NCBI RefSeq assembly: GCF_029227855.1
Contig: NZ_CP074356.1
Origin: Escherichia coli
GTDB taxonomy: Bacteria > Pseudomonadota > Gammaproteobacteria > Enterobacterales > Enterobacteriaceae
Length of the DNA stretch: 64,000 bases
Reading direction: 5' to 3' (one strand)
Every line of letters starts with the position of its first letter. The first letter of the stretch is position 1. The notes below the pieces were generated by a model, which searched no databases, had not been told where the DNA came from, and was given only the letters and a program-made list of their open reading frames with translations. A program made the position numbers and the translations under genes. Shown here in pieces: positions 8,957-59,502 of this stretch.

Positions 8957-9672
8957 TTAATTGTGCACAGAAAACCCCCAGCTAGGCTGGGGGTTCCGGA
9001 AAGCTTTCAGCTTTGAGCCAGTTATTAAAACCCCTTTTGATTTGTTAAAACACTTTGCGGTCTGGCAACTGCAAGTGTCAAACAAGAAATCAAAAGGGGG
9101 TCCCAATGGGGAACGAAAAGAGCTTAGCGCACACCCGATGGAACTGTAAATATCACATAGTTTTTGCGCCAAAATACCGAAGACAGGTGTTCTACAGAGA
9201 GAAGCGTAGAGCAATAGGCAGTATTTTGAGAAAGCTGTGTGAGTGGAAAAGCGTACGGATTCTGGAAGCTGAATGCTGTGCAGATCATATCCATATGCTT
9301 GTGGAGATCCCGCCCAAAATGAGCGTATCCGGGTTTATGGGATATCTGAAAGGGAAAAGCAGTCTGATGCTTTACGAGCAGTTTGGTGATTTGAAATTCA
9401 AATACAGGAACAGGGAGTTCTGGTGCAGAGGGTACTACGTCGATACAGTGGGTAAGAACACGGCGAAGATACAGGATTACATAAAGCACCAGCTTGAAGA
9501 GGATAAAATGGGAGAGCAGTTATCGATTCCCTATCCGGGCAGCCCGTTTACGGGCCGTAAGTAACGAAGTTGGATGCAAATGTCAGATCGTGTGCGCCTG
9601 TTAGGGCGCGGCTGGTAAGAGAGCCTTATAGGCGCATTTGAAAAACCTCCGGCTATGCCGGAGGATATTTAT
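8957..9672 (+). mobile_element. IS200 insertion sequence (IS200/IS605 family), about 0.7 kb; ends approximate
   Basis: Contains a 152-aa Y1 transposase essentially identical to IS200 TnpA as I recall it. Left-end terminator hairpin cccccagc-tag-gctggggg (about 8973-8993), long-range pairing ccccttttg/caaaagggg that would occlude the tnpA RBS, and right-end hairpin cctccggc-tat-gccggagg (about 9647-9665). Confidence 0.8.
9106..9564 (+). CDS. tnpA: IS200 transposase TnpA (HuH Y1 tyrosine transposase, 152 aa)
   Basis: ORF 9055..9564; protein from MGNEKSLAHTRWNCKYHIVFAPKYRRQVFY...HIHMLVEIPPK...YIKHQLEED matches IS200 TnpA (HuH motif HIH). Confidence 0.9.
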   Translation: MGNEKSLAHTRWNCKYHIVFAPKYRRQVFYREKRRAIGSILRKLCEWKSVRILEAECCADHIHMLVEIPPKMSVSGFMGYLKGKSSLMLYEQFGDLKFKYRNREFWCRGYYVDTVGKNTAKIQDYIKHQLEEDKMGEQLSIPYPGSPFTGRK

Positions 9673-58029: not shown

Positions 58030-58180
58030 GATGGCAGGACAGCACAGGGCTGTAACGGTAAAGCCCTCACCGAAGCGAGGGCTTGAAGGAGAAGGGTTAT
58101 GATGCGACTTGCCATCATACTGATTGTACTGTTACTCATAAGTTTCCCAGCTTATTAACAGTCAGTCACAGGGGAGGAGT
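58030..58180 (-). ncRNA. sibC: SibC antisense sRNA (type I antitoxin) overlapping ibsC; ends approximate
   Basis: Inferred from the ibsC ORF and flanking hairpins (aagccctc-accgaagc-gagggctt upstream; gggagga-gtaat-tcctccc downstream). Sib RNAs are encoded fully antisense to ibs ORFs. Boundaries not determinable by eye. Confidence 0.45.
58099..58158 (+). CDS. ibsC: Type I toxin IbsC (19-aa hydrophobic peptide)
   Basis: Hand-translated: MMRLAIILIVLLLISFPAY*, preceded by a strong SD (gaaggagaa); Ibs-family peptide in the serA-fau intergenic region where K-12 carries ibsC/sibC. Confidence 0.8.
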   Translation: MMRLAIILIVLLLISFPAY

Positions 58181-58258
58181 AATCCTCCCTTACCCTTACT
58201 CACTAAATTAGGTCAAAGAATCAACGATGTCAATCAGGGCGATGCAGGTGTGTCGCCC

Positions 58259-58807
58259 TCACCACTCCCAGACTTTCGACGGGGTAACCACCGCAGGCAG
58301 TGGGATATCCCACTCTTGAACGGGGAGTTTTTCCACCAACTGACAATCATGCGCATAACCCACCGGTTGCATTTTATAGTGCTGCCAGTTTTGTAAGGTC
58401 CGATCATAAAAACCACCGCCCATTCCCAGGCGCTGACCGTACTCATCAAAGGCGACCAGCGGTGTGATCAACACGTCTAATCGGGATAGGGGTAGCACGT
58501 CACGCACATCCAGTTTTGGCTCATGGATCTTCAACCTGTTCATCACCAGTTCGCTTTGCGGATGGTAATTCAGGAACAGCAAATTACCGGCACTAAAGGG
58601 ATGCAAAACTGGAAGATATACGCGCTTACCGGCGCGCCAGAGTTGTTCTATGAGTGGCTGGGTGTCGAGTTCGCCATCAAAAGAGAGGAATACAGCGACC
58701 GTATGTGCCATCACCACCGGGGGGTAAGTCATCATCCGGGTAGCGGCTTGTTGACCCATTTCCTGCTGTTGTTCCGGCGTTAACGCACGACGACGTTGCC
58801 GAATCAT
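58259..58807 (-). CDS. fau: 5-formyltetrahydrofolate cyclo-ligase (182 aa from MIRQRRR)
   Basis: ORF 58259..59005; protein from MIRQRRRALTPEQQQEMGQQAATRMMTYPPVV; the longer track ORF runs into ssrS, so the start is trimmed to the Met giving the 182-aa form. Confidence 0.85.
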   Translation of the reverse strand: MIRQRRRALTPEQQQEMGQQAATRMMTYPPVVMAHTVAVFLSFDGELDTQPLIEQLWRAGKRVYLPVLHPFSAGNLLFLNYHPQSELVMNRLKIHEPKLDVRDVLPLSRLDVLITPLVAFDEYGQRLGMGGGFYDRTLQNWQHYKMQPVGYAHDCQLVEKLPVQEWDIPLPAVVTPSKVWEW

Positions 58808-58879
58808 TTTGCGGATTTCTTGTCGGGATAATGTCTGTGGGAGTTCTGGTAGTTGCGTCATGGCTGGTGCCAGATAAGA

Positions 58880-59065
58880 AGGGAATCTCCGAGATGCCGC
58901 CGCAGGCTGTAACCCTTGAACCCTTGGTTCAAGGTGAATGTGTCGTCGCAGTTTTAAGGCTTCTCGGACGGACCGAGCATGCTCACCAACCGCGGAGCGC
59001 CACATTCTTGTGGTATGAAATATCGGCTCAGGGGACTGGCCCGCTTGCGAACATCTCAGAGAAAT
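58880..59065 (-). ncRNA. ssrS: 6S RNA (RNA polymerase sigma70-holoenzyme regulator)
   Basis: Reverse complement reads AUUUCUCUGAGAUGUUCGCAAGCGGGCCAGUCCCCUGAGCCGAUAUUUCAUACCACAAGAAUGUGGCGCUCCGCGG...GGAGAUUCCC, which matches the E. coli 6S RNA sequence as I recall it; lies between zapA and fau as in K-12. Confidence 0.88.
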
Positions 59066-59106
59066 TTTGTCTTCACGGTTACTCTACCACAGTAAACCGA
59101 AAAGTG

Positions 59107-59502
<396 letters not shown>

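Follow-up and report, generated by a model that had tools for sequence, protein, structure and literature searches.

The ssrS-fau locus of Escherichia coli: a reading frame that runs across 6S RNA and the most likely start codon of fau

The window analyzed here is a 64,000-nucleotide stretch of Escherichia coli DNA, and a mechanical listing of its ORFs includes one of 248 aa on the reverse strand (58259..59005) that runs out of the gene for 6S RNA and into fau (ygfA). The locus raises the question of where the Fau protein begins, and of whether any part of the RNA gene is translated with it. Three in-frame ATG codons are relevant, located at 59005, at 58861 (MTQLPELPQTLSRQEIRK...; MTQLPELPQ..., 200 aa), and at 58807 (MIRQRRR..., 182 aa). 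Our reading, to which we assign a probability of about 0.88, is that this is a standard enterobacterial ssrS-fau unit in which fau is translated from 58861 as a 200-aa protein without a Shine-Dalgarno (SD) sequence, the 248-aa ORF is spurious, the start at 58807 is an under-call, and the arrangement fits with Rho-dependent termination. This analysis identifies 6S and fau and shows that the long frame is not conserved, whereas the 58861 ATG and two arginines (R13 and R17) are; co-transcription, Rho termination, and the start mapped by ribosome profiling are taken from the literature.

The gene order is pepP-ygfB / zapA-ssrS-fau / ibsC-sibC / serA. A 1.5-kb region around the locus is found at 95-100% identity in 5425 of 5426 complete E. 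coli genomes, and its DNA is 100% identical to that of strain JNEC-KY178. The 6S gene lies directly upstream of the 5-FCL gene on the same strand, at a distance of 20 nt from the 58861 ATG. To compare this arrangement between species, we assembled 68 loci encoding Fau relatives, with one genome per species, of which 63 (62 Enterobacteriaceae plus the window) were usable because both 6S RNA and the conserved N-terminal motif of Fau could be placed. The spacer between 6S and the fau ATG measures 14-24 nt in 61 of these 63 Enterobacteriaceae loci; longer spacers occur in Klebsiella spallanzanii (102 nt; locus L032, 1099-1200) and Enterobacter sp. 10-1 (125 nt; locus L037, 1076-1200). Four Pasteurellaceae loci also carry 6S just upstream of fau. 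It has been reported that 6S RNA and ygfA are co-transcribed and that their arrangement shows strong conservation across enterobacteria and gamma-proteobacteria, although its significance is unexplained (PMC2848244). The sequence-only reading had named the known co-transcribed order of ssrS followed by fau, which agrees with the position of fau directly downstream and with this report.

On the far side of fau, an RNA of the SibC antitoxin type (RF00113, 138.5 bits) occupies 58083-58233 on the reverse strand, and a 19-aa Ibs toxin ORF, MMRLAIILIVLLLISFPAY, lies antisense to it at 58099-58158 on the forward strand. In the PGAP annotation, this variant is given the name 'Ibs family toxin' and not IbsC. 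Two Ibs genes occur at this spot in some E. coli genomes, where the match to the region is split into two pieces.

An Rfam scan of the whole window places 6S RNA (RF00013, 6S/SsrS) with 139.8 bits (E = 2.2e-28) over model positions 1-187 of 187, against a gathering score of 46.4 bits. The 184 nucleotides of the match are identical to K-12 ssrS at every position, and PGAP annotates an ncRNA with the same coordinates in a genome that is 100% identical to the window. The RNA is also unusually stable, with a minimum free energy (MFE) of -80.5 kcal/mol (z = -5.62; none of 200 shuffled sequences was equally stable). Both the MFE and the centroid structures form a long rod in which the 5′ and 3′ ends pair as a closing stem, followed by an open central bubble and an internal stem. 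The RNA is by its sequence 6S RNA, and hence the predicted RNA polymerase sigma-70-binding regulatory RNA; binding to the sigma-70 holoenzyme and templating of pRNA follow only from its identity to the characterized K-12 molecule. The placement of 6S RNA on the reverse strand by the sequence-only reading is confirmed, with a 3′ end that was trivially 2 nt too long. A consensus scan further identified a promoter-like site with a TG-extended -10 element whose predicted start falls approximately 9 nt ahead of the 5′ end of mature 6S RNA, a position that would match P1, the proximal ssrS promoter reported by Kim and Lee (2004). Coordinates are collected in Table 1. Elsewhere in the window, the Rfam scan returned a full-length match to the Hfq-binding sRNA STnc490 (RF01405, 144.6 bits) at 8973-9096 on the forward strand.

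Table 1. Features of the zapA-ssrS-fau region, in window coordinates.
Feature	Coordinates	Strand	Basis
zapA, upstream neighbor	59107..59436	-	ORF and PGAP annotation
Sigma-70 promoter-like site upstream of 6S (ATGACA, 18 nt, TG-TAGAGT)	59081..59110	-	Consensus scan
ssrS, mature 6S RNA, 184 nt	58882..59065	-	Rfam RF00013, K-12 identity, PGAP ncRNA, rod-like fold
Spurious extension of the ORF at its N-terminus, 48 codons (124 nt of 6S and the 20-nt spacer)	58862..59005	-	Non-conserved frame
Pyrimidine-rich spacer from 6S 3′ end to fau ATG, 20 nt, CTTCTTATCTGGCACCAGCC	58862..58881	-	No SD, duplex -1.5 kcal/mol
C-rich, G-poor stretch (rut-like), spacer plus first 13 fau codons	58822..58881	-	Base composition
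fau (ygfA), most likely CDS for the 200-aa 5-formyltetrahydrofolate cyclo-ligase, stop codon included	58259..58861	-	Family models, PGAP CDS of 603 nt, invariant ATG, TetRP
Internal ATG (Met19), K-12 reference start	58805..58807	-	NC_000913.3 fau, 549 nt

The 248-aa ORF reaches 59005 as the sequence-only reading described, but it covers the 3′ two-thirds of 6S RNA rather than half, because its first 41 codons (59005-58882, 124 nt) lie within 6S nucleotides 61-184. The fau frame is in fact open still further, back to a TAG at 59086, which is the next in-frame stop upstream. If this ORF were truly translated from 59005, 6S RNA would at the same time encode part of a longer Fau protein, and nothing favors such a role for the RNA gene except that, in Escherichia, the frame is open from 59083 and contains an ATG at 59005. 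The comparative set speaks against it. Among the 63 loci, the fau frame stays open for 3 to 74 codons ahead of the ATG, and the value of 74 is reached in Escherichia only; in the other genera, a stop occurs 3-53 codons upstream of the ATG. Moreover, the lengths of the spacer between 6S and fau fall into all three classes modulo 3 (18, 23, and 22 loci), and the phase of the two genes varies between genera; therefore, the frame through 6S is not conserved. When read in the fau frame, the 3′ part of 6S RNA accordingly gives three different translations depending on the genus, namely "RRIHLEPRVQGLQPAAASRRFP", "TKGSRVTACGGISEIP", or "NYDDTFTLNQGFKGYSLRRHLGDS".

Initiation at 59005 is also poorly favored by local features. 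No SD sequence precedes this ATG (duplex with the anti-SD of -0.7 kcal/mol), and the codon sits in the strongly paired rod of 6S RNA. Residues 1-51 of the ORF are covered by none of the protein-family models searched. Translation from 59005 is consequently a reading to which we give almost no credence. On comparative grounds the extension is a chance open frame through an RNA gene and is predicted to be untranslated, as the sequence-only reading had proposed. A 108-aa ORF at 58831-59157 on the forward strand, antisense to 6S RNA and the 3′ end of zapA, also appears in the ORF list and is presumably another artifact.

The choice that remains is between the ATG codons at 58861 and 58807. The protein itself is readily assigned. 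The Fau sequence scores 443.1 bits with the equivalog model NF007661, 160 bits with PF01812, and 178.1 bits with TIGR02727 (curated cut-offs of 343, 27, and 84.9 bits, respectively), and it is predicted to catalyze the ATP-dependent conversion of 5-formyl-THF to 5,10-methenyl-THF. The full-length matches to PF01812 and TIGR02727 start at residue 61 of the 248-aa ORF. This residue corresponds to R13 in the 200-aa form, six positions ahead of Met19, the methionine encoded at 58807. Coverage by the NF007661 model (198 positions) begins at residue 4 of that form. Solved homologues likewise align from E. coli residues 12-14. The 58861 start thus provides a complete 5-FCL domain that includes the N-terminal K/R-x-x-L/I-R helix, whereas a start at 58807 does not, since it results in the loss of the invariant R13/R17 motif and of six positions at the beginning of the Pfam domain.

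Annotations of this gene disagree. In the curated K-12 reference (MG1655, NC_000913.3; locus L003, 1742-2290), fau is annotated from the equivalent of 58807 as a 182-aa protein. In two RefSeq genomes, including one that is 100% identical to the window, PGAP instead annotates a CDS of 603 nt whose start lies 20 nt past ssrS. If the K-12 reference were right, Fau would begin at MIRQRRR and 6S RNA would be followed by an untranslated spacer of 75 nt. The curated annotation and the presence of an ATG at this codon in Escherichia, Salmonella, and some Citrobacter are the points in favor of that start. However, an ATG equivalent to 58861 is present in all 63 loci, whereas the Met19-equivalent codon is ATG in 15 of 63, is never GTG or TTG, and is no start codon in the other 48 species, where it reads CTG, TTA, CTA, GTT, CTC, ATC, ATA, CAC, CTT, ATT, ACT, CAG, TTC, TTT, ACC, or TAC.

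The residues that precede Met19 evolve as protein. In a gap-free alignment of 56 in-register sequences, M1, R11, and R15 never vary (the latter two are R13 and R17 in E. coli), and position 17 (E. coli Met19) is occupied by L, M, I, V, T, and others. Column entropies at the first, second, and third codon positions are 0.74/0.43/1.25 for codons 2-16, 0.47/0.34/1.42 for the codons downstream, and 1.28/1.07/1.53 for the spacer. Codons 2-16 therefore show a coding pattern like that of the downstream codons and unlike that of the spacer. This coding-type substitution pattern in the 18 codons upstream of 58807, with both arginines invariant, argues against their being untranslated, as does the removal of six positions from the Pfam and TIGRFAM domains by the shorter form. 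In Aggregatibacter, another member of the Pasteurellaceae, and Colwellia, a methionine also precedes the N-terminal motif.

Experimental data point in the same direction. By tetracycline ribosome profiling (TetRP) of K-12, Nakahigashi et al. (2016) assigned an ygfA ATG at -54 to the category '1. new site' (PMC4909307, Table S2, row 100), and their Table S5 lists ygfA as "alt-N'(new)" with 200 aa. The TetRP signals in the three samples were 150.5, 4.7, and 0.6 at the new site versus 0, 1.75, and 0.33 at the annotated site, which is that of 58807. The ygfA row of the same paper holds no N-terminal peptide, and the portion of the TRAINSPOTTER supplements covered here contains no fau/ygfA entry. 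Because the TetRP signal is strong in one of three samples and is not accompanied by an N-terminal peptide for ygfA, we regard the experimental support as real but modest. Initiation solely at 58807 appears very improbable on the combined evidence.

The same data bear on the prospect that E. coli initiates at both codons, producing a long (200-aa) and a short (182-aa) proteoform that differ in their roles. In Escherichia, ATG occurs in frame at 58861 as well as at 58807, two of the TetRP samples give a weak but non-zero signal at the annotated site, and the TetRP study reported 28 genes with two starts (PMC4909307). Since Met19 is encoded by ATG in Escherichia, Salmonella, and some Citrobacter, a minor second start in these genera is conceivable. 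However, Met19 is not conserved beyond these few genera, and the short form would lack the invariant R13 and R17, which align with the N-terminal K/R-x-x-L-R of solved homologues. The TetRP study also classed ygfA as '1. new site' and not as '4. multiple'. We consider dual initiation with distinct roles to be likewise very improbable.

The sequence-only reading had proposed a comparison of ribosome-binding sites before MIRQRRR and before the upstream starts. When the 20 nt preceding each start are paired with the anti-SD sequence, the duplex energies are -1.5 kcal/mol for 58861 and -0.7 kcal/mol for 58807, compared with -7.8 kcal/mol for zapA and -5.8 kcal/mol for serA. No SD sequence is present before either fau ATG, and therefore this test cannot choose between them. 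Accessibility is likewise similar for both, with mean unpaired probabilities of 0.52 and 0.46 near the two codons in a partition-function fold of the transcript from P1. The only SD-like element found, AGGAA (-4.3 kcal/mol), precedes an ATG at 58759, which was rejected as a start because it lies inside the conserved domain and the element is badly spaced. Among 36 representative species, the spacer between 6S and fau is on average 76% pyrimidine and the absence of an SD sequence is conserved. Fau translation would then start independently of an SD sequence, from a short pyrimidine-rich leader.

Points that also count against the 58861 start are that it has no SD sequence, that a very stable structure ends just 20 nt away, and that the curated K-12 reference places the start at 58807. 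On balance, the true fau start is most likely the ATG at 58861, 20 nt past the 3′ end of 6S RNA, and the 182-aa annotation of the K-12 reference is probably an under-call by 18 codons. The sequence-only reading gave the position of MIRQRRR correctly, but its choice of this codon as the true start is not borne out, given the conservation of the 58861 ATG, its annotation by PGAP, and its support from ribosome profiling. This correction is not new, as it has already been made by PGAP and the equivalog model and by the 2016 ribosome profiling study; only the K-12 reference record lags.

The region just after 6S RNA has a second distinctive property, which is its base composition. In the window, the ratio of C to G is 2.7 in the first 50 nt after 6S. 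Across all 36 representative species of Enterobacteriaceae, the first 60 nt after 6S contain 35% C and 11% G, whereas the remainder of fau contains 28% C and 28.5% G. This C-rich and G-poor composition is compatible with a Rho utilization (rut) site, a role that we infer for it from composition. Rho-dependent termination within ygfA was described by Chae et al. (2011), as cited in a passage of PMC3299989. A scan found no intrinsic terminator between 6S and fau; its sole hit, at 58417-58432, lies inside fau and is at chance level. Termination by Rho in the 5′ part of fau would yield a 6S precursor, and read-through would yield fau mRNA.

If fau starts at 58861, the C-rich stretch would coincide with its translation initiation region and first codons. 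A further and more speculative proposal, which we think rather unlikely, is that this stretch may serve both as the rut site for generating the 3′ precursor of 6S and as the region for fau initiation, such that loading of the ribosome and loading of Rho would be mutually exclusive on each transcript. The result would be a conserved switch between translation and termination. If true, the switch would partition each ssrS transcript between 6S RNA and Fau synthesis, and would explain in mechanistic terms why the linkage of ssrS and fau, long a puzzle, is conserved.

The significance of the locus otherwise amounts to little beyond annotation hygiene. Two opposite errors of ORF calling occur side by side: an over-extension through a structured RNA gene, and an under-call in the K-12 reference that drops 18 codons and with them two invariant arginines from the N-terminal helix of the enzyme. 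For cloning or deleting fau, or for designing ssrS mutations that spare fau, the 58861 start should be used. With this start, the distance from the RNA gene to the coding sequence is 20 nt and not 75.

Everything at the locus corresponds to objects that are already known, namely E. coli ssrS, fau/ygfA, and their linkage. The K-12 ssrS gene (b2911; RF00013) has the same sequence and the same neighbors as that in the window, with zapA upstream and fau downstream. The only difference concerns the annotated 3′ end, which gives a 183-nt RNA in K-12 (58883), a 184-nt RNA according to PGAP and Rfam (58882), and 186 nt in the sequence-only reading (58880). The Fau proteins of K-12 and the window differ by three substitutions (L9Q, T164M, and E182Q in the 200-aa numbering), and the K-12 reference protein NP_417387.3 is annotated as 18 residues shorter than the PGAP protein WP_001598600.1 (200 aa).

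More distant comparisons are provided by the solved MTHFS/5-FCL structures from Bacillus anthracis (2jcb), Bacillus subtilis (YqgN, 1ydm), Aquifex (1sou), and human (3hxt), which can be aligned over nearly their whole length with E values of 1e-16 to 1e-22. In human MTHFS, K10 and R14 contact the phosphates of ATP; our literature search on Arg14 of MTHFS found only papers on Arg145. Although these homologues are distant, and E. coli Fau carries approximately 10 extra, poorly conserved residues (MTQLPELPQTLS) ahead of the motif, they share with E. coli R13-R17 the N-terminal K/R-x-x-L/I-R helix, in which R13 and R17 correspond to K10 and R14 of human MTHFS, K2 and R6 of B. subtilis YqgN, and K3 and R7 of the Aquifex protein.
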